64,000 bases of DNA from Centroscyllium fabricii (taxonomy: Eukaryota), in assembly GCA_051313645.2 (NCBI GenBank), contig JBNRSN020000005.1, positions 192,572,001 to 192,636,000 on the forward strand, given 5' to 3'. The position numbers and the translations under genes were made by a program. This document shows, in pieces, positions 2,052 to 64,000 of the stretch. How positions within the stretch are numbered: position 1 is the first letter of the stretch; each line of letters starts with the position of its first letter. The notes under the pieces were generated by a model. That model worked only from the letters and a program-made list of their open reading frames with translations, had not been told where the DNA came from and searched no databases.

Positions 2052-2510
2052 TACTGTTGCCTGTCACTTTAATTGTCCGCTTCAGTCCCACTCTGATCCC
2101 TCTGTCCTCGGCCTCTTAAATTGTTCCAATGAAGCTCAACGTAAGCTCAAGGAACAGCACCTCATCTTTCGATTAGACACTTTACAGACTTCCAGACTCA
2201 ACATAGAGTTCAACAATTTCAGACAATAATCCTGCCCACATTTTTCCTGCTGTATGATATTGCCATTCCCATTTACAACATTTAACCTTTCCTGCCTCTT
2301 ACATAAGCACGATATGTTCTTTCAATTTAATTCCTCCCCTCCGAAACCCCTGCCCCTTTCTCTGCACATGCATAATATCTGTTACACCTTCAGCTTTTCC
2401 CAGTTCTATTGAAAGGTCCCAGACCTGAAACTTTTACTTTGTGTCTATCTCCACAGATCCTGCATGGCCTGCTGAGTATTTCCAGCATTTTCTGTTGTTA
2501 TTTCACATTC
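2052..2510 (+). mobile_element. Penelope-like element 3' fragment with terminal repeat
   Basis: Decayed VACHFN...RKLKEQHLIFRL...LNIEFNNFR* followed by AGGTC-CCA-GACCT-GAAAC and TCTCCACAGAT...CTGCTGAGTATTTCCAGCATTTTCTG. Confidence 0.8.
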
Positions 2511-5500: not shown

Positions 5501-5610
5501 TCCCCATGTACAGTCCCAGGGATGGAATCCCCATGTAAAGTCCCAGGGATGGAATCTCCATGTACAGTCCCAGGGTTGGAAACATGTACAGTCCCAGGAT
5601 TGGAATCCAT
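2511..5610. repeat. 27-bp minisatellite (CATGTACAGTCCCAGGGTTAGAATCCC) with a 1161-bp higher-order repeat
   Basis: 9-aa periodic ORFs in several frames; the diagnostic variant TACAATCCCAGAGTCTG occurs at 2835 and 3996 (43 x 27 apart). Confidence 0.97.
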
Positions 5611-5907
5611 CCGTTTGCCAATAAGCTTGGTGCCCAGCACATGCTCCCTGTAAAACCCAGTTCAAGGGCAATCTGAATCCATTTTCCTGCTCCCTTTGTG
5701 CCCAGCATTGCCTGCATCCCCGGCACACGGAAGTGGAATTTAAGCCTCAATGTTACAGGTTTCCTCGGTTACAGTCTGGAGAGGAATAATTGAATCTGAC
5801 AACGAGCTGTGTGATTGGTTCAGCCTATCATAGGAACAGGAGGGGCCCATGATTAATCCCGCCTGTATACCCTCCTCTCCTAAACGCTGTTTACAAATGT
5901 CATCACT

Positions 5908-12274: not shown

Positions 12275-13392
12275 CATATGTGGTGTATGTAGCATTGTTA
12301 ATACAAAGTTATCATTGCGCACTACTTTGTACTGTGGTCCGCCACTACTGTATATAAATCTAAGCGTGGAGTAATATGGGTCAGTTCCAGACTGTACCAT
12401 GATGAGTAAACATCACCTTTAGTTCGTACCTGTACAACTGAGTCTGTCATTATTAATCCTCAATAGTGCGGGCTCAACAATGGCAACGAGGTCAGTCGAA
12501 CTCATAGCTGTGTATTCGGCTACGTCGGGAAATGAAAAGATTCATTTTTAACTGAAGTCGACCATTGACCACTAAGGCACACCCTGCACTCCAGAAAAGG
12601 GAGCGGCAGCGATTCAACAGCAGAGGGAACTCAGTCAGCCTACACTCCAACACTGGGAGTGGCGAGGCATTTTCGCTCCAGCCAACAGAAATTGGCAGCA
12701 GGAGCCAGCAGAAACCGGCAGCAGGAGCCAGCAGAAATCGACAGCAGCAGTCAGCAGAAATCGGCAGCAGCAGCCAGCAGAATTCGGCAGCAGGAGCCAG
12801 CAGAAATCGACAGCAGCAGTCAGCAGAAATCGGCAGCAGGAACCAGCAGCAGCAAGAGCCATCAGAATCGGGTGCCCAGCTCAACAGCGGCAGGAAGGCG
12901 GCGAAGCAGGACCCAGCCAGCAGAAGCATCGGACATCGGCTCGAAGTGGGGCCAGAACAACAGCAAACAAAGTCGCACATCGGGGTCGAACGGGAGCATC
13001 CAGGGTGACGAAGCCAGTCACCAGAAGTGGTTGTCGAGGACCTAGGGTGGTCCTCTGACCAGGAGAACGCACCAGCTTGCAGGTAGAGTGCAATCCTTAC
13101 TGTAACCGCGGGGGAAATCAGAGGCCCAGCAGGGGAGAGACGCCATCTTTGAGCAGGAAAAGCACAGGAAGAGACGCGCGCAGGTGGGAAGATGCCGGAA
13201 GAGACGCGCAAAGGCGGGGCTAAGTGCCGGAAGAGACGTGCAAAGGTGGGAAAAACGCCATCTTAGCACGGGAAGAAACCGGAAAAGAAGTGGGAAGGCG
13301 GGACCAATGCCATCTTTTGGTGGGAAAGTGCTGGAAGAGACGTGGGGAGGCGGGAGAAGATGCCATCTTGACTGCAATAAAATTAAATAAAC

Positions 13393-15664
13393 ATGGCCAG
13401 AACAAACGGGTTTGGGGTTTCACAGCCAGATAAAGAAGACTGGGATGCGTATTTAGAATGCTTCGATATTTATTGTAACGTACAAGCAGTCACGAACGAG
13501 AACAAACTAAATACATTCTTAAATGCCCCGGGACCTGAAACATACGGGTTGCTCAGAACACTAGTGTCTCCAGATAGACCAGCGACTAAAACGTTACAAC
13601 AGATAAAGGATATTTTAAAAGATAATCTGAACCCAAACCCCCCTTTTATAGCGGAACGATTCACATTTTTTAAAAAGGGACCAGCAAAAGGGGGAGTCAC
13701 AGGCTGAGTACATGACCGCACTCAGATGGTTGTCGAAGCACTGTGCCTTTGGGGAGGAACTGTCCAATCACCTAAGAGACTGATTTGTATGTGGTATAAG
13801 GGATGATACCACACAAAAAACATTATTGACCAAAAAGACGCTCACTTTAGAGCAGGCCCTGGAGACGGCCGTGGCCCATGAGGCAACTGCAGCAGGGGCA
13901 GCCGCGATTAGAAACAGTGGGGGTCCTCTTGAGACCCACGAAATCTCTACATGCACAAAAAAGTGCTACCACTGTGGCAAGTCCACACATGACCAGAGTC
14001 GGTGCTGAGCTAAGGACAAAGACTGTAGACAATGTGGCAAGATAGGCCACATAGCGGCGGCTTGTTGGTCAGGGAAACAAGCGAGGCCAACACAGAGACA
14101 AACACAGAGACGGCCCAAACCCAGAAAGGTAAATAAAATGGCCGAAGAGGATTCAGGAAGCGAATCGGAAGACCAGGGCACAGACCAGTGGGGGCTGGGA
14201 AGCTTAAAGGTCCACAATATGGGCGACCACACTGACCGGAGTGTAATATGGATTCCCCTAAAAGTAGCAGGGGCAGAGATATCTATGGAGCTAGACACAG
14301 GATCTGCTCTATCAGTGATTAATGAAAAATTCTATCGGAAAACAGTCAGTGGGACACCCCTAGAACAGTCCCCGGTAATATTAAAGGCCTACACAGGACA
14401 GAAAGTTAAGACATTGGGGAGGTTGCCTGTCACAGTCAGATATCAAGGTGAACAGACAAAGGGTCTGTACCTCTATGTTTTAAAAGATGGTGGAGCACCA
14501 CTCTTGGGGAGGGAGTGGATCCGACGGATCAACTTCGACTGGGGCACAATACATAATGTCAAGGCCTCACACAAGACTGATGAGGACCTATCGGTCACCA
14601 GAAGACTAGACAGAATACTGGAAAAGAACCCAGAGGTTTTCCAACCGGGCCTGGGGAAGTTATAAAGCATTAACGCAAGGGTAATGATCACGCAGGGGGC
14701 AACCTCAATTTTCGCCAAGGCACGTCCAGTACCCTATGCTATTAGACCAGCAGTGGAGGCAGAACTCAAAAATTTGGAAGCAGAAGGAGTTCTGTCCAAG
14801 GTGGAATGGAGCGAATGGGCCACACCCATCGTTCCAGTCATAAAAAAACACAAAACAAGGACGGGGAGAAGACAAAGGTGCGCATTTGCGGGGACTTTAA
14901 AATGACCATTAACCCGGTGTTAAAAATTGTACAGTATCCATTGCCCAGAATTGAGGATATCTTTGCTTCCTTAGCAGGTGGGAAACGGTTCAGCAAGATA
15001 GACCTCTCACAAGTGTATCTACAGATGGAGGTGGAGCAGGATTCCAGGAAACTGCTGACCATCAATACGCACAAAGGGCTGTCAATATAACTGAATGGTT
15101 TTTGGCATCGCATCAGTGCCGGCCATATGGCAGAGGACCATGGATCAGGTACTGCAGGGTATTCCAGGGACACAATGCTACCTGGATGACATCTTAGTGA
15201 TGGGCAGAACGGATGGGGACATTTGTCTAACTTGGAAACAGTCCTGGAAAGACTCAAAGAGTGTGGGCTCAGGGCCAATAAGCAAAAATGTGAGTTTTTT
15301 AAGGATCACATTTCTTATTGTGGCCATGAAATTGATAGCGAAGGGTTACACAAATCGCCTGACAAGATAGTGGTGGTAGTAAATGCCCCAAGGCCAGAAA
15401 ATGTCATGCAGTTAAGGTCATTTCTGGGGCTGATTAACTATTATCACAAGTTGGTGCCCAACCTATCAACGGTTTTTACCCACTAAATACACTGCTACAG
15501 GCAGGGACACCCTGGAAGTGGGAGAAAGCATGTGAGACAGCTTTCTTAAAAAGCAAACAAATAATCACCTCTAAGGAGGTCTTGATGCATTTTGACCCCA
15601 GCCTGCCCATAAAGTTAGCGTGTGATGCTTCCCCTTATGGCATTGGCTCCGTGTTGTCCCACAA
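13393..15664 (+). pseudogene. Gypsy gag-protease-RT, disrupted
   Basis: ORF pieces at 13393, 13826, 14138 (LDTGSA), 14806 (YPLPRIED, KIDLS), 15095 (YLDD), 15582 (LACDAS). Confidence 0.85.
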
Positions 15665-16701
15665 ATGCAACTGGACCCTGGACTTTCTAACCAACAGACC
15701 ACAGTCTGTGAAGTTAGGCAACCTCACCTCCCCCCGCCTTACCCTGAACACGGGGGCCCCACAAGGTTGTGTGCTGAGCCCCCTCCTCTACTCCCTCTTC
15801 ACTCACAACTGTGTGGCTGTCCATGGCTCCAACACGATCATCAAGTTCGCGGATGACACCACGGTGGTTGGCCAGATCACCAACAACGACGAGTCAGCCT
15901 ACAGGGATGAGATCCAGCGCCTTGTGGGTTGGTGTGCTGACAACAACCTGGCACTGAACACCAAGAAAACCAAGGAGATCATAGTGGACTCCCAGAGGAC
16001 TGGAAGCAGAGGACACGCCCCCATCTTCATCCAAGGGGCTGAGGTGGAAAGGGTGTCCAGCTTCAAGTTCCTCGGGGTCCACATCTCGGAAGATCTCTCC
16101 TGGTCACTAAACACCTCCTCTCTGGTTAAGAAGGCCCAACAGCGCCTGTACTTCCTAAGGAAGCTGAAGAAAGCCAGGCTGTCATCCGGCATCCTCTCCA
16201 ACTTCTACCGCTGCACAATAGAAAGCATACTGACAAGCTGCATCACTGTCTGGTATGGAAATTGCACTATCTCGGACCGGAAAACCCTGCAGCGGGTAGT
16301 CAAAACTGCCCAACAAATGCCCAATGCACACAGCTACCGTCAATGGAAAGCATCTACCTCAAACGCTGCTTACGGAGGTCTCTGAACATTATTAAAGACC
16401 CCACACACCCCAGCCACAGTCTGTTCGCCCCCCTGCCCTCCGGGAGATGCTACAGAGCAATTTGCACCCGCACGACTAGATTTCAGAACAGCTTCTTCCC
16501 CAGGGCTGTCAGCCTCCTGAACTCTAAAAAGAAACTCCGGTACCTGCACGCCTGATAATGTACTTTACTGTATGCAATTTGCATGTAATTTATTTGCACT
16601 ACTCTCGGGAGAGTCGAGTCTTCGTCTCGTTGTATTGTACTAGTACTCTGCAATGACAATAAAACTTGAATTGAATTTAATTGAATTGAATTGAATTGAA
16701 A
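15665..16701 (+). mobile_element. Rex1/Babar-like LINE, 5'-truncated, inserted in the Gypsy RNase H
   Basis: CNWTLDFLTNRPQSV...GAPQGCVLSPLLYSL...KFADDTT...KAQQRLYFLR; tail CAATGACAATAAA(TTGAA)n; host frame resumes as RPIAFFS. Confidence 0.92.
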
Positions 16702-17141
16702 GACCAATAGCATTTTTCTCTAAGTCCCTCACCACGGCAGAAAAAAACTATGCTCAAATAGACCGTGAAACACTCAGCCTTGTGTGGGGGGGTGAAAAAA
16801 TTTCACCATTACATAAACGGCCAACAGTTTACACTGATAACCGCCCACCAACCATTGGTCTCTATTTTCCACCCAGAAAAAGGGGTACCCCAGATGACTG
16901 TACAAAGGCTACAAAGATGGGCACTGTTCTTGGGCGTGCACAAATATACCATTGAACATAAAGGCACTAAGAGGCATCGTAATGCGGACGGATTGTCATG
17001 ATTGCCCCTACCAGAAACAGGGGAGGGGGGACAACAAGATCCCCTGGAATTGTACCATATGGCAATAGTGGAGCAGTTACCAGTCACTAGCAAACAGATA
17101 GAGAGGGAAACGAGAAATGACCCGTTTGTCAAAACTTTTTA

Positions 17142-18359
17142 ATGTCTCAGTACGAGGATGGTCCAGACCTCAACCTATGGCCTGATTACGCCAACAGAAA
17201 GGACCAGTTGTCGGTCTGCCAGGGCACGTTAATGTGCGGAGGTCAGGTGGTAATCCCAGAAAAATTACGGAAACAAATTCTGATAGACCTACATGAGGGA
17301 CATCTGGGCGGGGTTAAAATGAAATCCTTAGCCAGGGCGTACATATGGTGGCCCAGGATTGACAAAGATATTGAGACACTGGCTAGTGAATGCACCGGGT
17401 GCAAAATGGTCCAAAACTCACCGCCCCAGGCGCCCTTACACCCATGGGAGTGGCCATCATCTCCATGGCAAAGAATTCATATAGATTTTGCCGGGCCTTT
17501 TATGGACACTATGTTCCTCATTGTCGTTGACGCCCATTCCAAGTGGCCCGAGGTGATAAGAATGTCTTCCACCACAGCTGAGAAGTCAATCGCAGTCCTC
17601 AGAACCATTTTTGCCAGAAATGGTATACCGGAACAGATCTGTTCCGATAATGGACCTCAGTTCGTCTCTGAGGAGTTTAGTGCATTTCTAAAAAGAAATG
17701 GGATCCAACATTACAAGTCGGCACCATACCACCCAGCCACAAATGGACTGGCAGAAAGGTTTGTGCAGACCTTCAAAAAGGCCATAAAAGCCATGGGGGG
17801 AGGAAAGTTGGAATTACAACATAAAATAGACAACTTCCTCTTTGCTTATAGAAATGTGGAACACACAACTACTAACCAGTCTCCGGCAGTGTTGTTCTTT
17901 AATAGGAGATTGCGGAATTGTCTGGACCTGTTGCAACCTAACATTCGTCGAGACATAGAAAACCAAATGTACCGAAAGGCTTCGGACCATGCAACACGAA
18001 ACTTTGATGTCGGTCAGGATGTGCTAGTAAGAGACAATAGGCATGATAGGTGGCAGGCTGGAACAATCAGCCATCGGCAAGGGCCGTTATCATACACAGT
18101 AGATACACCTGAGGGGCAAATCAGAAGACACCCTGACCAAATTGTAAGGGACACTGTGGCCAGTGCTGATTCACCCAAATCAAAGACAACAACAAAACGG
18201 ACAATACCCCATGACACCAATTCAGATGAAGAAGCGCCTGACGAAGGCTCTTTGGAGGTCGAAACAGACGGCGAGTCAACAAAGACTACCTCATCATCAG
18301 CCATCGCAGGACAATACCCAACGAGAGAACGCCGACCTCCACAGAAACTGAATCTGTAA
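17142..18359 (+). CDS. Gypsy integrase (open segment of pol)
   Basis: HHCC (LHEGH...C..C), IHIDFAGP, SDNGPQF, NGLAERFVQTFK. Confidence 0.85.
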   Translation: MSQYEDGPDLNLWPDYANRKDQLSVCQGTLMCGGQVVIPEKLRKQILIDLHEGHLGGVKMKSLARAYIWWPRIDKDIETLASECTGCKMVQNSPPQAPLHPWEWPSSPWQRIHIDFAGPFMDTMFLIVVDAHSKWPEVIRMSSTTAEKSIAVLRTIFARNGIPEQICSDNGPQFVSEEFSAFLKRNGIQHYKSAPYHPATNGLAERFVQTFKKAIKAMGGGKLELQHKIDNFLFAYRNVEHTTTNQSPAVLFFNRRLRNCLDLLQPNIRRDIENQMYRKASDHATRNFDVGQDVLVRDNRHDRWQAGTISHRQGPLSYTVDTPEGQIRRHPDQIVRDTVASADSPKSKTTTKRTIPHDTNSDEEAPDEGSLEVETDGESTKTTSSSAIAGQYPTRERRPPQKLNL

Positions 18360-18668
18360 CTGTACATATGACATCTGTATATATATCGTTATTAGTCCTC
18401 CCCCTTTACTGACTGTTGTACCGTAAAGGCTAATTAAGTGGGGAGGAATGTGGTGTATGTAATATTGTTAATACAAGGTTATCATTGCGCACTACTTTGT
18501 ACCGTGGCAGGACACTGCAGTACTGTGGTCCGCCACTACTGTATATAAGTCTAAGCGTGGAGCAATACGGGTCAGTTCCAGACTGTACCATGTCGAGTAA
18601 ATATCACCTTTAGTTCGTACCTGGACAACTGAGTCTGTCGTTATTAATCCTCAATAGCGCGGGCTCAA

Positions 18669-19015: not shown

Positions 19016-20068
19016 CTCCCAGCTGCACTTTGCCCTGCCGTTGAAGAAACCACAATCCTTTCCATGTCCCATCGACCGCAATTGTTGGTTTCTGAATATG
19101 GGTTTGGGTTCCCGCTCCTGTCCCGAGGCTGCAGAGCCCCTTTGGAATGTCCTGAGCTGGTGACAGGCAGTAAATAAAATCATAATCCCATCTTTCTTTT
19201 TGAAAAAGCCGTTACTTTCCAAAATAGCAAAAGTTCAGAAAGAAAATGTAGTATTTCATGTCAGCTGAATTTTACCATTCAACATTTATTTGTAATTCTT
19301 TAAAACGCACCAAGTAACTTGGACAAAAAAACAAAATAATTCCACATTACACTGAGAATAAAATAGGGCTGGGGCGAGACAGTATCCACACAGTGACCAC
19401 ACGGAGTAGAGAGGAAGCTCCGAGGCTGAACATTATTTACCACAAGTGTGGAATATGAAATGTAATAAAAATAACTTCCGGATACATTAAGTAACAACAT
19501 GTAAAATAAAACTGAAGGTTGTTCTCTTTGGTTGGGTGAAATTTACTGTCACAAATCCCCCAACAGATAGAACAATAACAACTTCCTGTCAATTTTTTGC
19601 AATTCGATGTAAGTGCAGTAAATTCTGTGACTGCTCAGGGAGGGGAGTTCACTTCCTACACTTATTGCTGCCAACAGTCTGCAGCTGTCAATCCTCAGCA
19701 CTGAGCTTTGGATCTACCCCCACATATTACTGCCTCTCTACCATACCTTTGTTCTGTAACCTCCTGTTAAGCGCCTTGGGATGTTTTGCTCTGTTAAAGT
19801 CGCTGTATAAATGTAAAATTTTGCTGCCGAGATTGATATGCCATCAATAACTCAAAGACAAGAAGTTAAAGGATTTAACTGTAGGCTTTTAATCGCTAAG
19901 AATATTGCACGTCATTCCCCATCGGGTTCCTCTGGCAGAATGACTCATACAGCTCTGGAGACCTTTATGTGATAAAAGACAGGGGCGGAGCCAATACACA
20001 CAATGGGAAAAGGGTGCGGTACACACAATACAATACAGGTAAAACCACAGGGGCTGATGAAAGACATT

Positions 20069-20994
20069 GGGCCATGTTTTCCTGTGCTCCAGAGGAGCTT
20101 CACACCCACGAAGAGGGTTCAGAAATGCCTCGTGGGTGTGAAGCACGGTGATTCCCACAAACGTCAATTTCCTGTGCTGATGGGGAAGGAGCTTCAGCTT
20201 CCAACGCAGGAAGACTTTGAACTGCCGATTTCCTGTAGCAGCTGCTCAAAATGCGTGTGTTATCACGTGGACATTTCTGTCTTGAGCTGCACATTTACAA
20301 ATCAGTCGTTGATGGTGAGAAACACGTTGAAAAGCTTTAAAAGGTAAGTTTTTTTAAATTCCTTTGGTGATGTGTGTGTGTGGTCTTTCTGCTTTTAAAT
20401 GGAAGTGGTTTTTTTTCTTTTTGTAAATTTTTTTTTTTAAACGGGTTTTCAGCAGTTCTGGTGGCTTTTCTTAAAAGCACTTTTACCTTATCTCAGAAGA
20501 CAGCAGCTGGTTAATTTTTACCTTAGGAATGAGGAACCAGTGTTTAAAAAAGAAAATGCTGCAAAACTGTTAAAAACCCATTTAAAAAATAAATAATTAA
20601 AAATGGGTTTTTAACAGTTTTGCAGCATTTTCTTTTTTAAACACTGGTTCCTCATTCCGAAGGTAAAAATTAACCAGCTGCTGTCTTCTAAAGTGCTTTT
20701 ACATAGCTGCTGTTTTTGGTGGGGTTTTCAGATCTTTTCACCTGCTGAAAGCCTTTGCTTTCTGCAGGATTCTGTGCTCTGTGCGGGGGAAAAAGCCGAC
20801 CTCAGTGGGCGTGGCCTGCTCACAACCCACGCACAAAGCACCTCGCAGCAACAAAAGCCAGACCCCCACGCAGCAAAAAAAACGGCATTTTCAGCAGGAA
20901 ATCGGCGTCAGAAAAAAAATAATTACGTGCGCGTGCGCCGCGGGTGCACGGGAGCGCGCACCCGCGGCAAACGGGCCACAGGAAAACATGGCCC
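20069..20994. mobile_element. MITE (PIF/Harbinger-like) in the 3' LTR of element E
   Basis: TIR GGGCCATGTTTTCCTGTG / CACAGGAAAACATGGCCC; TSD ATT; the sister LTR is uninterrupted at this position. Confidence 0.92.
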
Positions 20995-22907
20995 ATTTAT
21001 TTCATCATATTCACCCCTTCTACAGATTTAGTCTGTCCGGGGGTGTGATAGTCCTTTCTGAACGTCACAACAGTGCTTCGGGTTCAGACCGGGAGTCCGT
21101 GGTGCCCTCCTGGGCATACCCATGTGCTGGGGTTGTTGCAGGTACTTCTGGGGGTGGTGAGGATACCTCTGGCGATGGAGAGGATAGGTTGTCATCGCTT
21201 CCTGCCGGGGCAAGGTCCTTTATGGACAAGGTGTCCTCACGCCTGTCGGCATGCTTGACGTACGCGTACTGTGGGTCTGTGTGGAGTAGGTGTTCTGCCT
21301 CCACGATGGGATCTGTTTTGTGGCCCCTCACATACTTCCATAGTAAGACTGTCCCTGGGGTGGAGAGCCACGAAGGTAGGGACACTCCTGAGGTTGATTT
21401 GCGTGGAAACACAAACATCTTCTCGTGAGGAGTGGCATTAGCAGCAGTACACAGTAGCGACCTTATCGAGTGGAGTACGTCTGGGAGGACCTCTTGCCAG
21501 CGGGAGGTAGGGAGGCCTTTAGACCTTAGTGCTAAGGTGACCTCCTTCCACACCGTCGTGTTCTCCCTCTCCACTTGCCTATTACCCCGGGGGTTATAAC
21601 TAGTGGTCTGACTCATGGCTATCCCCTTTGACAGCAGGTATTGGCGCAGTTCATCGCTCATGAACGATGCCCCCGTCAGTTTGGATATAGTTTGAAATGC
21701 TGAAAGTGCAAAACCGGCTGCCGAGGCACTTGATGACCGTGGCACTGGTCATGTCTGGGCAGGGGTAGGCAAATGGGAAGCGGGAGTACTCGTCCAAGTT
21801 GAGAAAGTACACATTGCGGTCGGTGGAGGGGAGGGGTCCCTTGAAATCTAAGCTCAGACACTCGAATGGCCATGTAGCTTTGATCAGGTGGGCTTGGTTG
21901 GGCCTGTATAAATGGGGCTTGCATTCCGCACAGGTGCGGCAGTCCCTGGTCATAGACCGGTCCTCCTTGATGGAATAGGGCAGGTTACGGGATTTTATAA
22001 AGTGAAATAGCCGGGTGACCCCCGGGTGGCAGAGGCCATTGTGGAGGCAGTGTAGCCTGTCCCCCTGGATGCTGGCACACATCCCTTGTGATAGGGCATC
22101 TGATTCGTTGAGGGCCCCCGGCCTATATCTTATGTCGTACTCAAACGTGGAGAGTTCGATCCGCCACCTGAGAATTTTGGCGTTCTTAATCTTCCCCCTC
22201 TGTTGTTAAACATGAAGGCTACCGACCGCTGGTCGGTAAACAGTGTGAAGTGTTTGCCGGCTAGGTAGTGACTCCAGTGCCGCACTGCCTCCACTATGGC
22301 CTGGGCATCTTTCTCCACCGAGGAGTGCCTGCTGTCGGACCCTTGGAGGGTTCTTGAGAAAAAGGCTACGGGCCACCCATCCTGGTTGAGGGTGGCTGCT
22401 AAAGCGAAGTCGGATGCATCGCTTTTGACCTGGAAAGGGATGTTATCATCCACTGCCCGCAGCGCGGCCTTCTCAATGTTGTGCTTAATGCTGTTGAGGG
22501 CGGCGTGGGCCTCGGCCGTGAGTGGGAAGGACATTAATTTTAGATAGGGACGGACTTTGTCGGAATAATTGGGGACCCATTGGGCGTAATAGGAGAAAAA
22601 CCCCAGGCACCTTTTCAGGGCCTTGGGGAGTGTTTGGTAGGGGTAGCTCCCGTAGGGGGTGCAATCGGTCGGGGTCCGGACCGATTTCCCCGTTTTCCAC
22701 CACATAGCCCAGGATACAGAGGCGCGTGGTGCTAAAGGCACGCTTATCCTCGTTGTAGGTGAGATTGAGTCTGCGGGCGGTTTTAAGAAATCTCGCAAGG
22801 TTCGAATCATGGTCTTGCTGGTCATGCCCGCAGATGGTGATGTTGTCTAGGTATGGATAGGTGGCTGTTAACCGGTTCTGATCAACTATGCGGTCCATCT
22901 CCCTCTC

Positions 22908-23323
22908 GGGCGGCACGGTGGCACAGTGGTTAGCACTGTTGTCTCACAGCACTGGAGACCCGGGTTCAAATCGAGCCTCGGGTACTATCTGTGTGGCTGT
23001 GTGGAGTTTGCACATTCTCCCCGTGTCTGCGTGGGTTTCCTCCAGGTGCTCCGGTTTCCTCCCACAGTCCAAAGATGTGCGGGTTATGTTGATTGGCCAG
23101 GATAAATTGACCCTTAGTGTTGGGGGGATTGAATATGTGGGGTTACGGGGATAGGGTGGGATATGTGTCGGTGCAGGCTCGATAGGGATCGAGGGATATG
23201 GGGAGAGGGCAGGGACAGGGACGGGGTACTGGGTTTGGATGATCAGCCATGATCTCATTGAATGGCGGAGCAGGCTCGAAGGGCCGAATGGCCTACTCCT
23301 GCTCCTAGTTTCTATGTTTCTAT
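22908..23323 (+). mobile_element. HE1-like V-SINE inserted in the RT of element E
   Basis: tRNA-like A/B boxes (TGGCACAGTGG, GGTTCAAATC), V-domain GGAGTTTGCACATTCTCCCCGTG, CR1-type tail (TTTCTATG)n. Confidence 0.92.
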
Positions 23324-25757
23324 GGAAGACGGAGACCCCAATTCGTTACCCCAAAGGGGACTCTGAGGAAGTGGTAGGGGCGTCTGTTCGCCTCGAAGGC
23401 TGTGTATGGAAGGTCCTCCGGCCTAATGGGGAGCTGGTGGTATGCCGATTTTGATAGTGGAAAACACCCGGTATTGTGCAATTTGGTTAACCATATCCGC
23501 TATGTGGGGCAGAGGGTAGGCGTCTAGCTGGGTGAAAAGATTAACCGTCTGTCTATAATCTATCACCATCCGCTTCTTTTCTCTACCCTTAACTACTACT
23601 ACCTGGGCACGCCACGGGCTGGTACTGCATTCGATAATACCCTCTCGCTTGAGTCTTTCTACTTCAGATGCAGTGAACCGTCTGTCCCCCCAGCTGTACC
23701 ACCTACTTTGGTCGCTATGGGTCGACAGTTAGGTGCGAGGTTGGCGAACAGAGAGGGCGGCTTGACCTTCAGGGTAGCCAGACCACACACTGTGAGGGGC
23801 GGCTGGGACCGTGATACTTTGGTGGTGGCATTGGAAGTCCAGACCCATGATCACGCTCACACAGAGGTCTGGCATTATCAACAGTTTAAAATCTCTGTAA
23901 TCAGTGCCTTTTACCGACAACATAACCGCGCAGAAACCTGTAATATGTGAGGTATGCATCTTATCAGCCATGGCGATTTTGCCCTGTGTAGGGACTATCG
24001 TTAGTGAAAGTCATTTTATCAGGCTAGGATGAATAAAACTTTTGGTGCTCCCGCAGTCAATCAAGTGTTTACCTTGTCCCCATTTACCTCTATGTCCATC
24101 ATCGATTTAGACAATGGATGCAGCCTGGATTGATCCACTGTGATTGAGGCCACCAGTGGGTCCTGGGGGTCCGTGGAGTCGGGACAAGATGGTGGACTCC
24201 ATGTGGGTGGACAAGATGGTGTCCAAGATGGCTGCCCCCACAGTGCGCATGCGGCGGCGGCGGAGTTGGAGGTGGGATTCCCTCTGCAGACTTTGCTGAA
24301 ATGTCCTTTCTTCCCGCATTTAAAACAGGTGGTGCCCTTCGCTGGGCACAGATGCCTGGAGTGTTTGTCCTGGCTGCAGGTGTAGCATTTTGGGCCCCGA
24401 TGCATCGCCGCAGTAGTGGGGCTCCTGGGTGGAGGCTGGGGCTTCGATGGTGCTGGGCTGGCCTGAAATTTGGGAGGTGAAGATAGCTCCTAAGATGGCA
24501 GCTCCCACGGCATGCACGAGGTGGGGTGGAACGCGTGTCGTGAGGAATAGGATTCAGCGTTCCTCTGGGCCATATCCAGCAATTGCGCTATGTCCATAGC
24601 CTGTTTTAAGTCCAGTCCCTCCTTTTCAAACAGCCTCTGCCGAATGTAATTTGAACTGAGGCCCGCAATAAAGGAGTCATGGATCAGCTCCTCCGTGTAC
24701 ACGGTGGCAGACACGGCCTTACAATTACAGTCTCTGCCCAGTACTTTTAGGCTTCACATGAAGTCCTCTAGTGACTCACCATGCCACTGCGTGCGAGTAG
24801 TCAGAAGATGCCTGGCGTACACCTCGTTTATTGGCTGCACATAGTGAGCCTTCAGGATGGTGCAGGCATCCTTGTAGTTGATGGCATCTTGGATGAGAGG
24901 GGAGACCTGATGACTCACCCGGTTTCGCAGGATTCCCAGTTTCACGTCTCTGGTGGCGGTCGCAGCTGCTATGGCAGTGGCTGAGGTTTCAATGAAAAAT
25001 TCGAAGCATTGGAACCAGTGTTCGAACTGTGTGGCTGCGTCTGTGGCATGGGGGTCCAGATCCAAGTGCTTTGGTATCAGGAGTCGATCCATCTTGGTGT
25101 TTTAGTGATTAAAATTGATGTGCCATCAATAACTCAAAGACGAGAAGTTAATGGATTTAACTGTAGGCTTTTAATCACTAAGAACATTGCACGTCATTCC
25201 CCATCGGGTTCCTCTGGCAGAATGACTCATACAGCTCTTGAGACCTTTATGTGACAAAAGACACGGGCGGAGCCAATACACACAATGGGAAAAGGTTGCG
25301 GTACACACAATACAATACAGGTAAAACCACAGGGGCTGATGAAAGACATATATTTCATCACAGAGATGTGGTGGATCCAATGGGAGGAATTTCGTGAGGA
25401 GCAGAGAAACCAGCACAGACTAGTTGGGCCGAATATCCGGTTTCAGTGCTGTTTAATCTTTGTTATGTAAGCACCTGAACTACCGCTCTGCTCTGTCTGC
25501 CTTCCTATTGACGGGGATCTTACCATGGAAGCTGCAAATAAATTTATGCACTAAACAGATGAAGGGACTCTTTAAAGAAGAGCTATGATGGAATTCAGCA
25601 AATTAGTGGTCGTCCCGAATGTCAATGTCGGAACTGTCAATAAGAAATAGTGCCCTGTCCTAAACACAGTGCTTGTTCTGCCGCTGATTTTATTTTCAGA
25701 TCACCAGCGATTCCTGGTGTAATTCATGTAATAGTTGTCTGGGGCTAAATATTACAT

Positions 25758-26701
25758 TCATGCCCTGGAAACACTGGGACCTGCCTCGGGGCTGTGCTCA
25801 GTTGTTCTCATACATTGAATATTTGAGGTAAACGGATATTTCACCATGCTCTTGAACTGCTCTCTGAACTTGGACTGGGTCACCCCATAAATAAATGTAT
25901 TTGTGCAGCAACTTAAATTCTGCAGCATATATCCGACTTGATTAAAGATATAAAAAGGATAATTGTCATAATTGCCATCTGTTCCTCTAATGTAATGGTG
26001 CAAGAAATGTATTACATATACCAACCAAAGGAGTATGAAGCTGCCAGATATGGTGAATAGTAAAATCACAGACTTCCTTCTGTTCTCCATCTCTGGGTCA
26101 ATGTCATTCTCTCCCTTGCTCTCACCCCTCAGTCCCTTACGGACCCGACTGGCCACTAAAATGTGCCTGACTGTCAGAGCATTGAGCAACAGGATTAAAG
26201 CGAATGGGAGCATTGGGGTGAAAACCATATCAGACAAGTCAAATCCCACCCATCCGGGTTCAGAATAATAGCTTGGGATTAAGTAACAGAACCACAGCAC
26301 ATTGTCGATTATCTCTCCAGGTTCATATATAAAGTAGTAGGGAACGTTTTTTAAGCAGAGCAGAATGCAGGTTGTTGCTAAAACCACAGCCGCTGTTTTC
26401 TCGGTGCAATATTTTGTTTTCAGCTTCTGGCAACAAATGGCCACAAATCGATCAAAGGTGAAAGTGACGGTGAACCAGACAGAACAGTCTGTGGCTGCAC
26501 CGACCAGGACAGTGCGAACACTACACACAGGAGTGATGTCCAGGAAACATATTGGGAAATAATACCAATTGATCTGGTTCAGTATGATCTCAGTGATAAT
26601 GACCATTAGATCCGCCGCTGCCATGGCCACCAGGTAACAAGTGGTGCAGGTGGAGAGGCCGCATTTTCCTCAGGACAGGATCACAATCGCCACTAAATTA
26701 A
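25758..26701 (-). pseudogene. GPR139/GPR142-like class A GPCR, exon 2 (end of TM1 to TM7), with a premature TGA
   Basis: Acceptor TTTTTAAAG| at 26702; (V)NLVAIVILS*GKCGLS...YLVAMAAADL...FTFDRFVAIC...NTFIY; TGA at 26670-26672, probably from CGA; the downstream 290-aa frame is open. Confidence 0.88.
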
Positions 26702-30879: not shown

Positions 30880-30990
30880 GTGTACAGCTGCTTCAGTCCA
30901 CTGGCTCCTTTTCGTTGACATGCTGCTGCTTGCTGAGGCAGCTGCACAGCCAGAAATGCTGATGATTCGATTTTGCAGCATTAATGCACC

Positions 30991-33900
30991 TGTCGTGCAT
31001 GCAGGCCTGAAGAACCACGCGGGAGCCAGTAGGACAGAAAACACTTGTTTATTACATTGCATGGCCAGGTAGGAAAAGAGACTGAACCACCTGGAGCAGG
31101 CTTATTTAAAGCACCCGCGGTTGGTGATCTCATCACGCCGGAAGTCGCGGTGATGTCACCACATCACCCGATGGGCGGGGCCGTGCCCCGCGGTACTCCC
31201 GAGGCGGATTCGATGCCTTTGGTGGGCGTGTCGCCACACAGCTCCCCCCCAGAATCTGTAAGGGAGAATAAAGTAAAAATAAAAAATGAGTCTCATGAGA
31301 GGCGTTGAGGTGGCCGGATGATGCGGCCGGCACGTGTCGTGCGCTGCTCCTTGTTCTGCGGTGGAGTGTGGGCGGTTTTTGGTGCGGGAGGGCGTCCGCG
31401 TTTTGGTGGCTGCGCGGGGACTGTTGTCTCACCCGCTATTACGTGTGCCGGCTTCAGCCGGTCTATTGAGACGGTTTCAGTCCTGTTGCCCATTTTCAGT
31501 TCGAAAGCTTTAGCTCCCGCCCGAAGCACTCTGTACGGTCCATCATACGGTGGCTGTAGTGGCGATCGATGTGCGTCGTGGCGGACAAACACATATTTGG
31601 CGTTTTTCTCCGTGCCGGGCCACCGGTAGCGGTTTGAATGCTCGTGCCTGGTTGTTAAAGTCCTTCAGGTATTGGTCTGCTGACCAGGGAGCGTTTGGCT
31701 CTGCGAGGAACTCACCTGGCATGGTTAGAGTTTGGCCGTAGACGAGTTTCGCTGCTGAGGCGTGCAGGTCTTCTTTGGCCGCTGAGCGTAGGCCGAGCAT
31801 TACCCAGGGCAGGCGGTCTGTCCAAGTTGAGTCCTTAAGACTGGCCCGCAGGGATGCTTTGATGGAGCGGTCGAACCATTCGCAGAGTCCGTTGGACTGT
31901 GGGTGGTAAGCGGTGGTTCAGTGTAGGGTTACCCCAAGGTCGCGGGCGATGGTCACCCATAGTGTCGACGTGAATTGGGGGCCTCTGTCCGACGTGGTGT
32001 CGGTGGGTACGCCGAAACGCGCGACCCAGGTGGCGATGAAAGCCCTGGCCAGGTCCGTGGTGCTGGTAGCAACGAGTGGGACCGCTTCTGGCCAGCGAGT
32101 GCTGCGGTCGACCATGGTCATGACGTGTGTGTGTCCCCGTGATGGCGGTAGTGGTCCGACCAGGTCGATGTGGACGTGGTCGAAGCGTCTAGCTGGTATG
32201 GTGAATGTTTCCAGTGGTGCCTTGATGTGCTTGTGCACCTTGGCGCGCTGGCAGGCAATGCAGGCGTTGGTCCAGGCGCGGACATCCTTGCGCAGGCCGC
32301 GCCAGACGAAACGTGCCGAAATCAGCTTGGTGGACGCGCAGGTGCCAGGGTGGGACAGGCCATGGAGGGTCTGGAAAATGTGTCGCCTCCATGCGTGGGG
32401 GACGATGGGTCTGGGCTGCGGGAGGGAGACGTCGCAGCAGACTGCGGTGGCTGTGGGCCCGTGTGCTACGCTGGCCAAGTGCAGGCCGGGGAGGTTGGTA
32501 GCTGGGTCGAGCAGGTCTGGGTCTGTTAGTTGGTCGGTTGCCAGTTTGGCGTAGTCGACCGCCGTTTGTATGGCGTTGATGGTGGGATGTGACAGGCAGT
32601 CAGCGACCACATTGTCGCGGCCGGCGATGTGCTGTATGTCGGTGGTAAATTCTGACACGGCCACGAGCTGGCGCTGCTGCCTGGCCGACCAGGGTTCGGC
32701 GATCTTAGCCATTGCGGACACGAGCGGCTTGTGATCAACGAAGGCTGTAAAAATGGCGGCCCTCTAAGAGGAAGCGGAAGTGGCGCACTGCGAGGTAGAG
32801 AGCGAGTAGCTCCCTATCGAAGGCGCTGTACTTGACCTCTGGGGGCCGAAGTTGCCAGCTGAAAAAGGCCAGGGGTTGCCAGGAGTTGCCGGTCCTCTGC
32901 TCAAAGACCACTCCGAAAGCGTGGTCGGAGGCGTCGGTGGTGAGGGCCACTCTGGCGTTGGGCCTAGGGTGGGCTAGGAGCGTGGCGTTGGCCAGGGCGG
33001 TTTTGGTTGCGGTGAAGGCGGTGGTGGCTTCGGCCGTCCACTCGACCGCAGTTTTGTTGGACTGCCCGCGTGTGGCCTGGTAAAGGGGTGCCATGAGAGC
33101 GGCTGCTCCTGGGATGAAGCGGTTATAAAAATTAACCATCCCTAGGAATTCCTGCAGCCCCTTGATGGAGTGCGGGTGGGGGAATTCCTGGACCGCCTGC
33201 ACCTTGGAGGGCAGGGGTATGGCCCCGGTTTGGGAAATGCGGTGGCCGAGGAAGTCGATCGTCTTGAGGCCAAATTGGCATTTAGAGGGGCTTAATATGA
33301 GACCGTGCTCGGTCAGGCGTTGGAACAGGGTCCTGAGATGGAGGAGGTGTTCTTGGGGGGAGGTGCTGGCCACGAGGATGTCGTCTAGGTAGACGAACAT
33401 GAACTGCAAGTCCCGTAAGACTGAGTCCATGAGGCGTTGGAAGGCCTGGGCCGCGTTTTTAAGTCCGAAGGGCATTCGGAAGAATTCGAACAGTCCGAAA
33501 GGGGTGATGACGGCTGTCTTAGGGACATCCGCCGGGTGCACTGGTACCTGGTGGTAGCCCCGTACCAGGTCGATCTTAGAGGAGATTGTGCAGCCCGCTA
33601 GCCTGGCGGAGAAATCTTGGATGTGGGGTACGGGGTACCTGTCTGGGGTGGTGGCATTGTTGAGGCGGCAGTAGTCTCCGCAGGGGCACCAACCACCGCC
33701 CGGCTTGGGGGCGATGTGGAGGGGGGAGGCCCAGGGGCTGTTGGAGCGGCGGATTATGCCGAGTTGTTCCATAGTGCGAAACTCGGTACGCGCGATCTCC
33801 AGTTTGGCCGGGTCCAGCCTGCGGGTGTGGGCATGGACGGGAGGGCCGGTGGTGGTGATGAAATGGTCCACCCCGTGTTTGGCCGTGCGGGCTGTGAAGG

Positions 33901-35435
33901 TGGGGTTGGTGAGGGCTGGGAACTCCGCGAGGAGTGTGCCGTATGTGTCGGAGTTCCGGGCTCGGTAGTGTGCCGCTGCGTGGGCCTGGCGTGCCGGCCC
34001 TGTGGTGCATGGGATGGTCGACATGTTGTGTATATCGACCAGTCGGCACCGGGTCATGTTGACCAGGAGGCCGTGGGCACAGAGGAAATCTGCCCCGAGG
34101 AGGGTTAGTTTGACCTGGGCGGTGATGAAGTCCCAGTGGTACGTGTGGCCTGCTAGCTTGATGGTGAGCTTGCGGGTGCCGTACGTCTTTATTTCGGAGC
34201 CGTTTGCGGCTTCGAGTGGCGGGCCCCGGGTGCCTTGTTTGGCTTCTGCAGTGGAGGCTGGCACAATGCTGTGCTGCGCGCCTGTGTCGCAGAGGAACCG
34301 GAGGCCTGTGCCGCTGTCTGTGACGTAGAGCAGGGCTCCAGAGTGGCCTACAGACATGGTGGGGCTTGAGCCGGGCTGGGGTTTGAAAGTGCAGGGCTGG
34401 ACGCAGCATTGTGCTTTGGATTCAAACCAGGTGTGGTAGTAGCACCAGCCGGTGCCCGATGTGCGCGGCCTTTTGCGGGGTCGCGTTGGCCTGGGTTCAG
34501 GCCTGGGGCCGGACCTGGGGTGCACGTAGCGGGGCTCGGCTGCCGTAGCAGCGGGCTCGCACGTGGCGGAGCGGGAGCGCTCGGCCGTCATGAGCTTGTC
34601 GGCCTCCTCAGCCAGCTGTTCTCCGCTGCAGTGGCAGAGGGCCATCAGAGCCGGTCTGACGGAGGGGGGCAGTTTGAGGAGGAACAAGGTGCGCTTGATG
34701 GAGGCTGGGTCTGATTTCAGCGCTTCCATTTGGGCCCAAAGGTCCGATGGGTCTGCGTCCCCGAGTTCGGGGAGGTTGATGAGCTGGCAGTCGCGCTCAA
34801 ATTGGGAGGGGGTGAATTTTTTAAGCAGCGCGGCCTTAAGGAATTCTTACCTGCCCGCTGCTGGTGCACGCTGTAACGTCGGCCACATCCGATCGACCGT
34901 GGTCTGCGGTAGGGCCGAGAAGAGCAGGTCGTAGCGATCATCCCCCTGGACGCCATGGATGCGGCAGCTGGTTTCGATACACAGGAACCAGGCCGCTGAG
35001 CGTAGCTCCCAGAACTCCGGTAGAGTTAATCTGTGGCCGGAGTTCTGGCCCAGTCTTTGAGGTCGTGCAGCTTGGCTTCCTGAAGGCATGTTGGTTGGAA
35101 GTGCTCTGAGGCAGCTTGGCCCTCAGTCCTGCAGCAACTGCTTCATTTCTGTTCTCCTGGAAGACGTTCCAAGCTCGGGGTCACCACTGTCGTGCATGCA
35201 GGCCTGAAGAACCATGTGGGAGCCAGTAGGACAGAAAACACTTGTTTATTACATTGCATGGCCAGGTAGGAAAAGAGACTGAACCACCTGGAGCAGGCTT
35301 ATTTAAAGCGCCCGCGGTTGGTGATCTCATCACGCCGGAAGTCGCGGTGACGTCACCACGTCACCCGATGGGCGGGGCCGTGCCCCGCGGTACTCCCGAG
35401 GCGGATTCCATGCCTTTGGTGGGCGTGTCGCCACA
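30991..35435 (-). mobile_element. Ty3/Gypsy LTR retrotransposon, CsRn1-like, full length
   Basis: 248-bp LTRs 30991-31238 and 35188-35435 (6 differences by eye); TSD CACC; PBS TGGTGACCCCGA (tRNA-Trp-like); G-rich PPT; CHCC gag motif CYYH...C...C. Confidence 0.96.
31293..35089 (-). pseudogene. CsRn1-like gag-pol, with frameshifts and stops
   Basis: LCDTGA protease, YLDD RT and TDAS RNase H in 32735-34729; integrase HIDLVGP/SDRG in 31918-32721. Confidence 0.9.
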
Positions 35436-35734
35436 CACCTCCACTTCAAGAAGTAGAAAAAGCCTGTGGAAATCATGATTGGCAATTGGACTGCACCTGA
35501 TATTGGTCCACCTTCGGAGTGTAACATCAATGAATTTGCGCTTAAAGTCTTGAATTGGGTTTCCAATCATTCCTTTGAACAGTGAGCATTAGCGGCTGGT
35601 AGTAATTCTGCAACTTTTCTACTGATACCGTCCATGCCTGGGCTATAATAAATTTCTAGCCCACTGAGTCATAGATAAGAACTGGTTCGTCAATCCTTAA
35701 TATGTAACAGAAGTGCAGTAATTAATAACCGCAG

Positions 35735-48534: not shown

Positions 48535-49004
48535 GGGCCAGTGCTGAATTAGCATCAAAAATAGCGCCCCGCGCTAAATGCAGCTGGGCACTAAACTGGG
48601 GGCTAACTGTTAGCGCCCCAACAAATTTAGTGCCCAGCTGGACTTCCTGAATTACGTCATCAGGTTGTGCAGCGCCTGGGAGGCACTGCACGGCCGAAAT
48701 TGGGCAGCGCCCATCGTTTCATCATGGCGCTCTGCCAGCACCAGCCTTTTTCTGTCCAAACAGCAGCGCCTGAGCACTGCTTAAGGGAAGTGCAGCGTTC
48801 AGCCATTTTTATTGCTGGCCGACCGCCAGCACCTTCCCCCTAGCCTCCCCCGCTGCTCCCCGGAAGGGTGAGTCTTCCCTCAGCTGAGCCCGGTACTTCC
48901 TCCGAGTGCCGGGCTCGTTCTGCGGCTCCCGGTCCCTCGGCAGCCCCACATGGCTCTCGCTGCAGCCACACTAGGCCCCTCACCTTTAATGGGGGAGGCC
49001 GGCC
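48535..49004. mobile_element. Probable one-ended non-autonomous TIR element
   Basis: Starts GGGCCAG; AGCGC-rich like 6900-7191. Confidence 0.35.
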
Positions 49005-51113: not shown

Positions 51114-51551
51114 TGATGTGACAAAAGAGACCTATACATCAATAACTCTAAGGGGCCCTTCACAATTGTCAACATTTTCACAAGTGTACAAAGAGTACTC
51201 TTTTTTGCTACCCCCTCCCCCCCCCCTGGAAGTGTACACCAAAAATGTTTATTTTTTCCAACATCATCCATTGAATTTAATTAGCACAGGGAGGTTTAGA
51301 AAGGAACCAGAGTGACTGCAGACTCATCAGGGAGATCCTCGTTACTCAGAGTCACTGTCTGCGGTCATGGGCCGGGGGGCCGGCAGCCTTGTGTGTTGAT
51401 GGAACTTCAGATCTGTAAAAATCAGCACAAGATGACAGTAAACACACTGACTGACCAGCCGCACAGCAATCCCCATCCCCGGCCCTGGCCCCGGCTCCTC
51501 CGGGAGGACAAACCTCAACCGCGGCAGCAAGGCCCAAGGCGCAGCCCGACC

Positions 51552-51694
51552 GCATTTGGATGAGCACTTGAGATGTCATAGCATACAAGGCTACGGACCA
51601 AGTGCTGGAAAATGGGATTAGAATAGAAAGGGCTTGATGGCCGGCGCGGACATGATGGGCCGAAGGGTCTCTTTCTGTGCTGTAAAGCTCTATG
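51552..51694 (+). mobile_element. CR1 3' tail
   Basis: Closely similar to 6620-6722. Confidence 0.85.
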
Positions 51695-51986
51695 GGCGAG
51701 TTTCCCACCCAGAATGTTGATGCCCCTTCGGTTCAGGTGCAAGCCGTCCCGGTCATACAGATCCCACCTTCCCCAGAACGATCCCCAATTGTCCACGAAA
51801 CTCATGCCCTCCCTTCTGCACCAATCCTGTAGCCACGCGTTTATTCTCATTCTTTTTTTGTTTTTCCACTCCCTATCCCGTGGCACTGGTAGGATCCCAG
51901 AAATCGTGGCATTATTCGTTTTGTCTCTCAGTTTCCTTCCTAGTTCCTTAAATTCCTGCTTTATGTCTTCCTCCTTTTTCCTCCCT
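51695..51986 (-). mobile_element. CR1 ORF1 SGNH-esterase fragment
   Basis: INAWLQDWCRREGMSFVDNWGSFWGRWDLYDRDGLHLNRRG. Confidence 0.85.
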
Positions 51987-52854: not shown

Positions 52855-52876
52855 CGGAACAAAAAAAAAAAAATCG

Positions 52877-52910
<34 letters not shown>

Positions 52911-62143: not shown

Positions 62144-62495
62144 GACGGGTGGTTCCCTGGGGTCCTCAGTTCCTTGTTGTCTGAAGGTTTCAAAATTTTG
62201 AGCGTAGTAGTTGATTAAATTGATGTGACAAAAGAGACCTACACATCAATAACTCCAAGCAAAGCTTTAATCAACTATTTACAGAGTTAGAGTTTCACAT
62301 GCTTACAGGGGAAGCATCATCCCAGACTGGATAGCAGCAGAACTTATACCACTAGACAGGAAGTGGCGTATATACAGGAAGTGACATGTAATAAGGAAAT
62401 TATGTCACAGGAAATACATATGCAGAGTTCATTAGACTTTCTGCCGGAAGTTTCAATATCACCACACACCTGGTGGACAATTCTAGAATGAAATG

Positions 62496-64000
62496 TGTCA
62501 TAGGTTGGATTCCCCTTTAACTCCTAGGTGGGCTCTTCTCCTTTAAACTGGTCAGCACCTCGTTAACTACTGCATGCACCTGATTGGACAGCCCAGATTA
62601 ACCAGTAGTATCTAGAGCTGTATATAAGCTCCCACTTTTCACCATGAGGTTGCCAGATCGTTAATTCTTCTGACTGTGATACTTATGTTTTGTTCCTAGC
62701 TCTCTGATCCTGTCTGTTCGTGATACTGACCTGCTTACTGGAAACTTGGATTTTCTTCTGCTTGAACTCTGTTTTGGATTGTCGCTCCCATGGACGGACT
62801 ACCCGGTATATTACTGTTTCTGAATTTGGATTCTCTCCTGCCTGAACTCTGTTTTGGACTTGTTGCCTCCGTGAACTTTCTGCCGTTATTGACCTACTGT
62901 TTCTCATGTCGTTGACTGCTCAGAAATAAAGGAGTTTACTTCTACGTATGTTTTCAGTGTATTGCATTTGGGCCCAACCTACAACCGTTACAGAACGATC
63001 TGGCCAGAAATGGACCCAGCAGACACACCGAATCGTCTTGCGCAGATCGAGGGCCTCCTACAACAACTGGGGCAGGCCTTGGAAGGGCTAACAGCCCGAG
63101 TTGAGCAGCTAACCGTTGCCCGGATCCAACAGGCAGCTTCGAATCCGGCAGAGACCCTACCACCACCAGTTCTTGCTCCAGCATCGGGGTCGGCAACCAT
63201 GCCTCACCCACAAGGCCTCACACCCGAACCCCGGGTCGGGGTCCCGGAGCGTTATACCGGTGAACCTGAGCAATGCAATCCCTTCCTCACAAACTGTTCC
63301 ATTCTTTTTTCATTGCAACCCCACACCTTTGCCAATGAGGCGGCAAGGGTAGCCTTTGCTATTAACCACCTTACAGGAAGAGCTCGTCTCTGGGGAACCG
63401 CCGAGTGGGAGAGAGAGACTCTGGCTTGCTCTTCCTTCCAGAGATTCGCCATCGAATTAAGAAAGGTGTTCGGCATGGTGACCTACGGCTCTGAAGCAGC
63501 TCGGGGACTCATGAATCTGAGCCAGGGTAATCAGACAGTGGCAGACTATTCCATAGACTTCCGAATCAGAGCTCGTCAGAGTGATTGGAACTCTGCTGCA
63601 TTAGGTGACGTTTTTCTTCATGGGCTTGCAGAGTACATCAAGGATGACCTGGTCTCCTATGATCTCCCTTCCACCCTGGATGAACTAATTAGTCTTGCCA
63701 CCAGGATCGATCTCCGTATCCAGGCGCGTCGACGTGAGAGACGACTGGGAACGACTGGTCGACCTCCTCCAAAACGGTCTCAAGAGATATTCGTGGCGCC
63801 CAGGTCTACTGCGACAGCAGGGTCACAGCCAGTGGGCCCCGAACCAATGCAGTTGGGTCGCACCAGTCTCTCATTGGTGGAGCATGAACGACGCCGCCAG
63901 GGGAATCTCTGTTTGTACTGCGGCCAGGCCGGCCATTTTGTTTCCCAATGCCCAGTAAAAGGCCGGACTCACCAGTAGATGGAGTCGTACTGGTGAGTCG
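62496..64000 (+). mobile_element. Sushi/Tf1-like Gypsy element D (5' LTR plus gag), running off the window
   Basis: LTR 62496-62992 (TGTCA...TTACA), TATATAA at 62621, AATAAA at about 62925; gag follows directly. Confidence 0.9.
63010..63978 (+). CDS. Sushi-like Gag (PEG10/RTL-related family), intact
   Basis: MDPA start, PERYTG..C..FL, LTGRARLW, LSQG...VADYSIDF, EPMQLG, CLYCGQAGHFVSQC. Confidence 0.92.
   Translation: MDPADTPNRLAQIEGLLQQLGQALEGLTARVEQLTVARIQQAASNPAETLPPPVLAPASGSATMPHPQGLTPEPRVGVPERYTGEPEQCNPFLTNCSILFSLQPHTFANEAARVAFAINHLTGRARLWGTAEWERETLACSSFQRFAIELRKVFGMVTYGSEAARGLMNLSQGNQTVADYSIDFRIRARQSDWNSAALGDVFLHGLAEYIKDDLVSYDLPSTLDELISLATRIDLRIQARRRERRLGTTGRPPPKRSQEIFVAPRSTATAGSQPVGPEPMQLGRTSLSLVEHERRRQGNLCLYCGQAGHFVSQCPVKGRTHQ

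Follow-up and report, generated by a model that had tools for sequence, protein, structure and literature searches.

How does a Ty3/gypsy retrotransposon that carries no tRNA-type primer site begin its reverse transcription? The question is raised by element E, a decayed Ty3/gypsy retrotransposon on the minus strand (19834-25362) of the 64,000-nucleotide stretch of Centroscyllium fabricii DNA analysed here (the window), and by element B of the same window, since the TGG of a tRNA-type primer site was found in neither of them. A preliminary description of the window had remarked that the primer-site position of E is complementary to a segment of its own LTR, that B possesses the same fold with a different sequence, and that this argues for selection on structure. 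The analysis presented below leads us to an answer that we consider probable on the sequence evidence: in the clade of E and B, reverse transcription would be primed not by a tRNA but by this LTR segment (the arm) itself, once it has been cut, as predicted, at its 3' edge.

Element E displays the hallmarks of Ty3/gypsy elements, i.e. paired TG...CA LTRs, a target duplication and a polypurine tract. Its parts are the following:

25116..25362, minus strand: 5' LTR, 247 bp, TG...CA, delimited by its pairing with the 3' LTR, the target duplication and family contigs (ending at 25362 and showing loose ends at 25116)
25363..25367 and 19829-19833, minus strand: 5-bp target-site duplication ATCTC, in matching copies flanking E
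25169..25181, minus strand: LTR arm of the helix, the predicted self-primer, including ATTAAA
25102..25114, minus strand: primer-site position, a perfect complement of the arm without TGG, at +2 past the LTR-terminal CA, with the spacer A at 25115
25114..25130, minus strand: 7-bp palindrome with a 3-nt loop (ATTGATG-3 nt-CATCAAT), overlapping the helix by one base
25124..25135, minus strand: E copy of a 12-mer common to E and B
21065..25092, minus strand: decayed gag-PR-RT-RH-IN region with several frame breaks
21010..21021, minus strand: polypurine tract, with a comparable tract before the 3' LTR in the related loci L005 and L017
19834..21009, minus strand: 3' LTR, interrupted some 15 bp in by an insertion with terminal inverted repeats (about 20070-20994)

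The two LTRs are 96% identical (9 differences in 234 columns), the start codon is located at 25092, 22 nt past the start of the primer site, and a SINE-like insertion (about 22908-23316) interrupts the coding region. On the same strand, about 400 bp upstream of the 5' LTR, lies a host-type reading frame of a rhodopsin-family receptor (25758-26669, minus strand; 7tm_1, E-value 9e-19).

The complementarity itself is exactly as it had been described: on the minus strand, TTTTAATCACTAA (25114-25102) pairs without a mismatch with TTAGTGATTAAAA (25181-25169). The resulting helix of 13 bp closes a loop of 54 nt and begins at +2 behind a one-base spacer A. Both its position at +2 and the presence of ATTAAA in the arm had been pointed out before, and both were seen with the LTR end fixed by the LTR pair and the target duplication. 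For E alone, an iid estimate puts the chance expectation of a match of this kind inside the LTR at 8e-6. The predicted folds of E and B are stable; for E the folding z-score amounts to -4.65 (0 of 200 shuffles as low) in a segment trimmed closely to the helix, and to only -1.68 on a 116-nt segment. Contigs from four runs carry other letters at 25106 and 25177, two positions paired in the helix, which would make a matched change, but this is a hint only, as the contigs are unphased and mixed with other subfamilies and the letters of E also fit CpG decay. An inner stem at 25114-25130 had likewise been proposed; the palindrome is indeed present, but it is absent from the predicted E fold and shares base 25114 with the main helix.

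Element B, a member of the same clade, is built in the same manner:

62221..62466, minus strand: 5' LTR, 246 bp
62467-62471 and 51109-51113, minus strand: target duplication AGGTG
62266..62277, minus strand: LTR arm
62252..62265, minus strand: predicted hairpin directly 3' of the arm
62208..62219, minus strand: primer-site position at +2, a 12-bp complement of the arm
62244-62255: B copy of the 12-mer common to E and B

Its helix comprises 12 bp with a loop of 46 nt, again at +2, so that E and B differ in helix sequence and in loop length (54 vs. 46 nt) with perfect pairing in both, as previously stated. This difference is not trivial, because the two elements sit in different subclades of the RT/RNase H tree. 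The 12-mer that had been reported as common to both LTRs has four copies in the window, one per LTR of E and B, and none in the other 77 of the 79 regions surveyed below. It was accordingly rejected as a motif of the clade (2/79 regions), and also as a promoter element at a fixed distance, because its spacing from the arm differs between E and B.

The other mobile elements of the window provide controls on both sides. Gypsy elements with TGG-type sites, A (12278-18668) and F (30990-35442), served as negative controls, and the three TGG-type elements of the window show at most 6 complementary nt. We take F to be CsRn1-like, and two of the TGG-type elements to be Mag-like. The TGG-primed gypsy element C (53280-58125) is nested within B, and a decayed relative is found at about 48900-50900. 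A positive control outside the E/B clade is provided by an element of the sushi type:

62496-64000, plus strand: sushi-type element G, which runs off the window end
62652..62662, plus strand: 11-nt arm of G, with its complement at 62994-63004, at +2 past the LTR end

Element G displays the same +2 register, with a helix of 11 bp and a loop of 331 nt; a TATA box precedes its arm by 24 nt, and fish relatives of its Gag carry chromodomains. The 3' LTR of B, like that of E, is split by a terminal-inverted-repeat element (about 51153-53026 in B); 3-bp duplications flank these insertions in both elements, and presumably they are Harbinger-like. Elsewhere in the window, at about 2400-5700, there is a tandem array of a 27-bp unit in more than 110 copies, with several frames open.

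To what extent the helix is shared was assessed in relatives that were gathered by Gag protein similarity, independently of the helix (2 loci from genome bins and the best 80 of 90 from metagenomes). Five loci with less than 90 nt upstream were dropped, and the remaining 77 form, together with E and B, 79 regions in 35 sequence clusters. Under an anchored rule, any CA plus one base located at most 95 nt from the start codon was considered, and the next 11 bases were compared with the best upstream segment. Perfect 11/11 pairing was found in 45 of the 79 regions and 21 of the 35 clusters; among 1050 dinucleotide shuffles none reached 11 and 15 reached 10. Because a few assemblies supply many loci, the 21 clusters are the count to use, and these are related rather than independent. 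A conserved helix with changing sequence thus extends well past the two elements for which it was proposed, and the shuffled controls that the preliminary description had called for speak in its favour.

The same description had regarded family members without the helix as counter-evidence. Besides the 21 clusters with perfect pairing, 14 miss the perfect rule. Six of the latter keep a partial helix and look mutated or deleted (L021, L055, L061, L066/67, L068, L076/77), three possess a primer-site-like start with no arm upstream (L043, L069, L070), in one the site is decayed (L075), and four are without a visible LTR end (L004, L024, L033/34, L072/78). The LTR ends were also checked independently. 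A 3' LTR was seen in 19 of the 32 loci of sufficient length, and the LTR alignment ended exactly at the CA in question in 7 of these, while it overran the CA by a few bases in 8 and by more in 2, with 2 cut by the contig; in L005, L010, L012, L013 and L017 the LTR ends are fixed by 5-bp target duplications. The LTRs of L005 and L010, families with young copies, are 99-100% identical. A held-out scan based on RT yielded 13 loci, from which four clade members and three distant elements were examined. In L086 a helix of 14 bp stands where it was predicted, and L085, from the same family, is a copy with 10 bp; no helix was found in L084 and L087, nor in the three distant elements. The viral contigs scanned contained no relatives. 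Animal-type retrotransposons (L001, L002, L083-L093, L095) were observed inside contigs filed as bacterial genome bins, a placement that is likely due to host contamination. In L018 only two bases of the contig precede the helix (L018:1-16), a single case and possibly chance.

Since helix positions 1-11 were selected for, a fair test of covariation has to look beyond them. The unselected position 12 forms a Watson-Crick pair in 21 of 21 families and does so with all four pair types, compared with 6.0 expected from the make-up of the columns. At positions 13, 14, 15 and 16 Watson-Crick pairs are present in 18, 17, 15 and 8 of the 21 families, and the chance level is reached beyond. The helix is sharply bounded, with a length of 12-15 bp and an inner edge that never extends inwards; the spacer is A in 21/21 families, and no G-U pair occurs in the 63 cells of positions 12-14. 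When arms are swapped across families, only 6 of 420 pairs match at 12/12 (there are 18 distinct 12-mers), with 9-10 matches of 12 being frequent; the arms are AT-rich and partly alike. Even the close relatives L031 and L058 are distinguished by one matched double change. A TGG near the LTR end was found in none of the 21 families.

In tRNA-primed retroviruses it is established that the primer site is recopied from the primer. In the E/B clade the covariation is probably in part mechanical as well, given that each cycle would renew the primer site as a copy of the primer, and the lack of G-U pairs at positions 12-14 fits such recopying. Under recopying, all pairs would have to be Watson-Crick and the outer edge abrupt; both are seen, and the covariation therefore favours priming over selection for a generic fold. 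Of the argument for selection on structure, the covariation itself holds throughout the clade, but the recopying of the primer site is another possible source of it.

The relatives possess a single reading frame of about 1200 aa and LTRs of 150-250 bp. Two zinc knuckles are present in the Gag of all 83 proteins longer than 1100 aa, and in E, and the domain order of E and B is PR-RT-RH-IN, with which the Pfam results for the relatives P0008 and P0106 agree. A chromodomain (PF00385) was found in 0 of 120 listed relatives, and is absent in P0008, P0106 and the integrase tails of E and B; it is present in the sushi-type protein P0011. The RT active-site motif ends in DN, not DD, in 94 of 120 proteins (relatives P0008, P0072-P0190), and likewise in E and B. 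Named members belong to Nematostella, Paramuricea, Trichobilharzia, Paragonimus, Sparganum, Trichuris, Biomphalaria and Armadillidium, the hosts thus being a sea anemone, a gorgonian coral, flukes, a tapeworm, a nematode, a snail and a woodlouse.

In RT/RNase H trees the clade (24 rows; 12 in a second tree, with part of E) and the fish sushi-type proteins each form a 100/100 group. A grouping of the clade with sushi was neither recovered nor rejected in a data set with three other long-branch rows, no outgroup and no fungal Tf1 row (AU p = 0.062), and a branch uniting the clade with Mag-like rows is weak (71/41) and involves two long rows only. Two zinc knuckles in Gag are a trait of the Mag lineage, and the combination of two zinc knuckles, a frame of about 1200 aa and LTRs of 150-250 bp recalls Cigr-1 of Ciona. 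By this resemblance, the clade may be that of Cigr-1. By contrast, the Mag-like elements of the window carry TGG-type sites, which were found in 0 of 21 families of the E/B clade, and there is no supported grouping of the two. In the searched supplements of PMC6238403 names are present, with no match for the motifs looked for.

Several further features accompany the helix. The four bases directly after the arm pair in a local hairpin, with a mean of 0.64 vs. 0.31 in shuffled sequences (21 families; highest of 100 shuffled means 0.49), E being an exception without this junction hairpin (0.07 vs. 0.35 in the null), and they are conserved as G/A, C, C and T in 20, 19, 16 and 15 of 21 families. 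A stem at the LTR end is just as frequent in shuffles (0.28 vs. 0.28, 21 families) and is well formed in B only. The notion of one fold common to the elements consequently applies to the outer helix but not to the LTR-end stem, and with a loop folding z below -2 in only 2 of 21 families the inner stem does not qualify as a feature of the clade. The arm includes AATAAA or ATTAAA in 17 of 21 families, and usually this is the sole such hexamer nearby; the perfect helices of the other four cover no canonical hexamer, L015 having one outside the helix. In the outer half of the arm, helix positions 11-9 are fixed as A, G and T (18, 20 and 18 of 21) behind a T-rich run, which may resemble an initiator. 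An exact TATA box at 15-45 nt upstream of the arm is present in 0 of 21 families (in L018 the upstream sequence comprises only 5 nt), and there is no fixed upstream position at which a TATA box recurs. Words with one mismatch to TATA cluster weakly at about -70 and -100 nt, in about five families and with no null comparison, and would place the RNA start well before the arm.

The geometry of the helix is that of a primer: it is antiparallel, the 3' end of the arm would point into the LTR, and it lies one base from the LTR edge, at the place of the tRNA. Self-priming of the Tf1 kind, outside the Tf1/sushi group, is the reading that suits this clade-wide feature best. In such a cycle transcription would initiate, without a TATA box, at the outer edge of the arm or slightly ahead of it, and the 5' end of the RNA would fold back onto the primer site. 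RNase H would then cut between the arm and the adjoining hairpin, as in Tf1, and minus-strand DNA would be copied over the 24-72 nt back to the cut. The strand jump would rely on the short stretch of overlap that reaches from the cut to the poly(A) site, and in plus-strand synthesis the primer would serve as template for a new primer site, so that both arms would stay matched. The arm copy in the 3' LTR (in E at 19887-19899, one base off the 5' arm) has no partner nearby and would likely act as poly(A) signal in most families.

The hexamer within the arm suggests a different purpose, namely that the helix chiefly hides the poly(A) signal of the 5' LTR and so prevents premature 3'-end processing, with priming left to something else. 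Such a role would suit the location of the 3' arm of the helix outside the LTR, which allows the helix to form only at the 5' end, as well as the usually solitary hexamer in 17 of 21 arms and the stable folds of E and B. We nevertheless judge it quite unlikely as the main function: masking needs neither an inner edge at +2 nor an invariant spacer nor positions 12-14 free of G-U pairs, and it would leave the element without a primer site. The four helices that cover no hexamer, together with the fixed register and the missing tRNA site, are thus left unexplained by it. Masking of the poly(A) signal may, however, be a second role of the helix. That the whole match is a by-product, whether of chance in AT-rich sequence, of template switching or of an inverted repeat linked to integration, and that a host RNA such as a tRNA fragment primes unrecognised, appears to us most improbable. 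The AT-richness and partial likeness of the arms across families would agree with it, and priming by half-tRNAs exists in copia lineages (PMC6317226, in the part accessible). However, the shuffles, the covariation of position 12 in all 21 families and the failure of arms to match when crossed largely refute this reading; moreover, the 18 distinct sites each follow their own LTR, which no single host RNA could match, and a search of positions 24900-25500 gave no Rfam match.

Self-priming by something other than a 5'-terminal piece of the RNA is closer to the preferred reading, and we consider it unlikely. The primer would here be a long 5' fragment, from an RNA that starts 45-70 nt upstream, of which only the terminal 12-15 nt would pair, or the arm copy at the 3' end, trimmed to a 3' OH. 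Both variants would be in line with the lack of a TATA box at a Tf1-like distance and with the weak TATA-like clusters further upstream; furthermore, as the arm overlaps the poly(A) hexamer, it is also close to the 3' end of the RNA, and DNA cannot distinguish between the LTR copies. On the other hand, pairing falls to chance past position 15, as if the primer ended there, the fixed and possibly initiator-like A, G and T in the outer half of the arm would point to a start at this place, a partner at 24-72 nt should outcompete one at a distance of 4 kb, and the TATA-like clusters concern the few families mentioned, without a null for comparison. A more far-reaching proposal, to which we attach very little probability, holds that an ancient, animal-wide clade invented tRNA-free priming independently of Tf1, and that a single segment of 12-15 nt is poly(A) signal and primer at once, its 3'-end copy being the one that pairs with the primer site, circularises the genome and would prime after trimming to the edge of the helix.

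Tf1-like self-priming by the 5' arm, the reading that we prefer, has clear parallels. Its demonstration has so far concerned mainly the Tf1-type elements of fission yeast. Self-priming of the Tf1 type has been described (PMC4600332, PMC6317226, bioRxiv 10.1101/2022.12.06.519325), and in the accessible parts of the literature self-priming is characteristic of Tf1/sushi chromoviruses, with predictions for a few plant lineages, among them Tcn1 and copia TAR (PMC6317226, PMC4600332, bioRxiv 10.1101/2022.12.06.519325, PMC3601003, PMC6934838, PMC2864245, PMC6238403, PMC8556966). As in Tf1/Tf2 of Schizosaccharomyces pombe, Tj1 of S. japonicus and the Tf1/sushi chromoviruses, the primer site of the E/B clade is complementary to the element's own upstream LTR, a tRNA site is absent, and the domain order is that of Ty3/gypsy. 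Unlike Tf1/sushi, the E/B clade possesses no chromodomain and forms a separate RT/RNase H clade, its arm usually includes a poly(A) hexamer, and there is no exact TATA box at the usual distance. The helix of 12-15 bp with a loop of 24-72 nt also differs from that of the sushi-type element G (11 bp, 331 nt), and, of the three-duplex Tf1 'pretzel' around the primer site, the LTR-end stem is not enriched in the E/B clade, where a hairpin directly after the arm is. For the plant elements Tcn1 (gypsy) and TAR/Houba/Osr-1 (copia), self-priming has been predicted from a complement of at least 10 bp located 0-5 bp after the LTR (PMC6317226, accessible part), i.e. likewise as a prediction and on the same sort of sequence evidence; the E/B clade differs from these in being an animal Ty3/gypsy lineage with other hosts. 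In a literature search that covered few subscription journals and no Repbase notes, we found no report of self-priming for a chromodomain-less animal clade.

If the preferred reading is true, self-priming would be a recurrent strategy in animals, present in elements of cnidarians, flatworms, nematodes, molluscs and crustaceans in addition to the copies in Centroscyllium fabricii, and it would account for the absence of a primer site in elements of the E/B clade. It would also predict that these elements escape from control by tRNA fragments. The positions of RNA start and cut that it specifies are exact, and the clade would offer a second system for the cutting of an RNA-RNA duplex by RT/RNase H. 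Finally, the design would be a compact one, in which about 15 bases combine the primer, the likely RNA start and the poly(A) signal.
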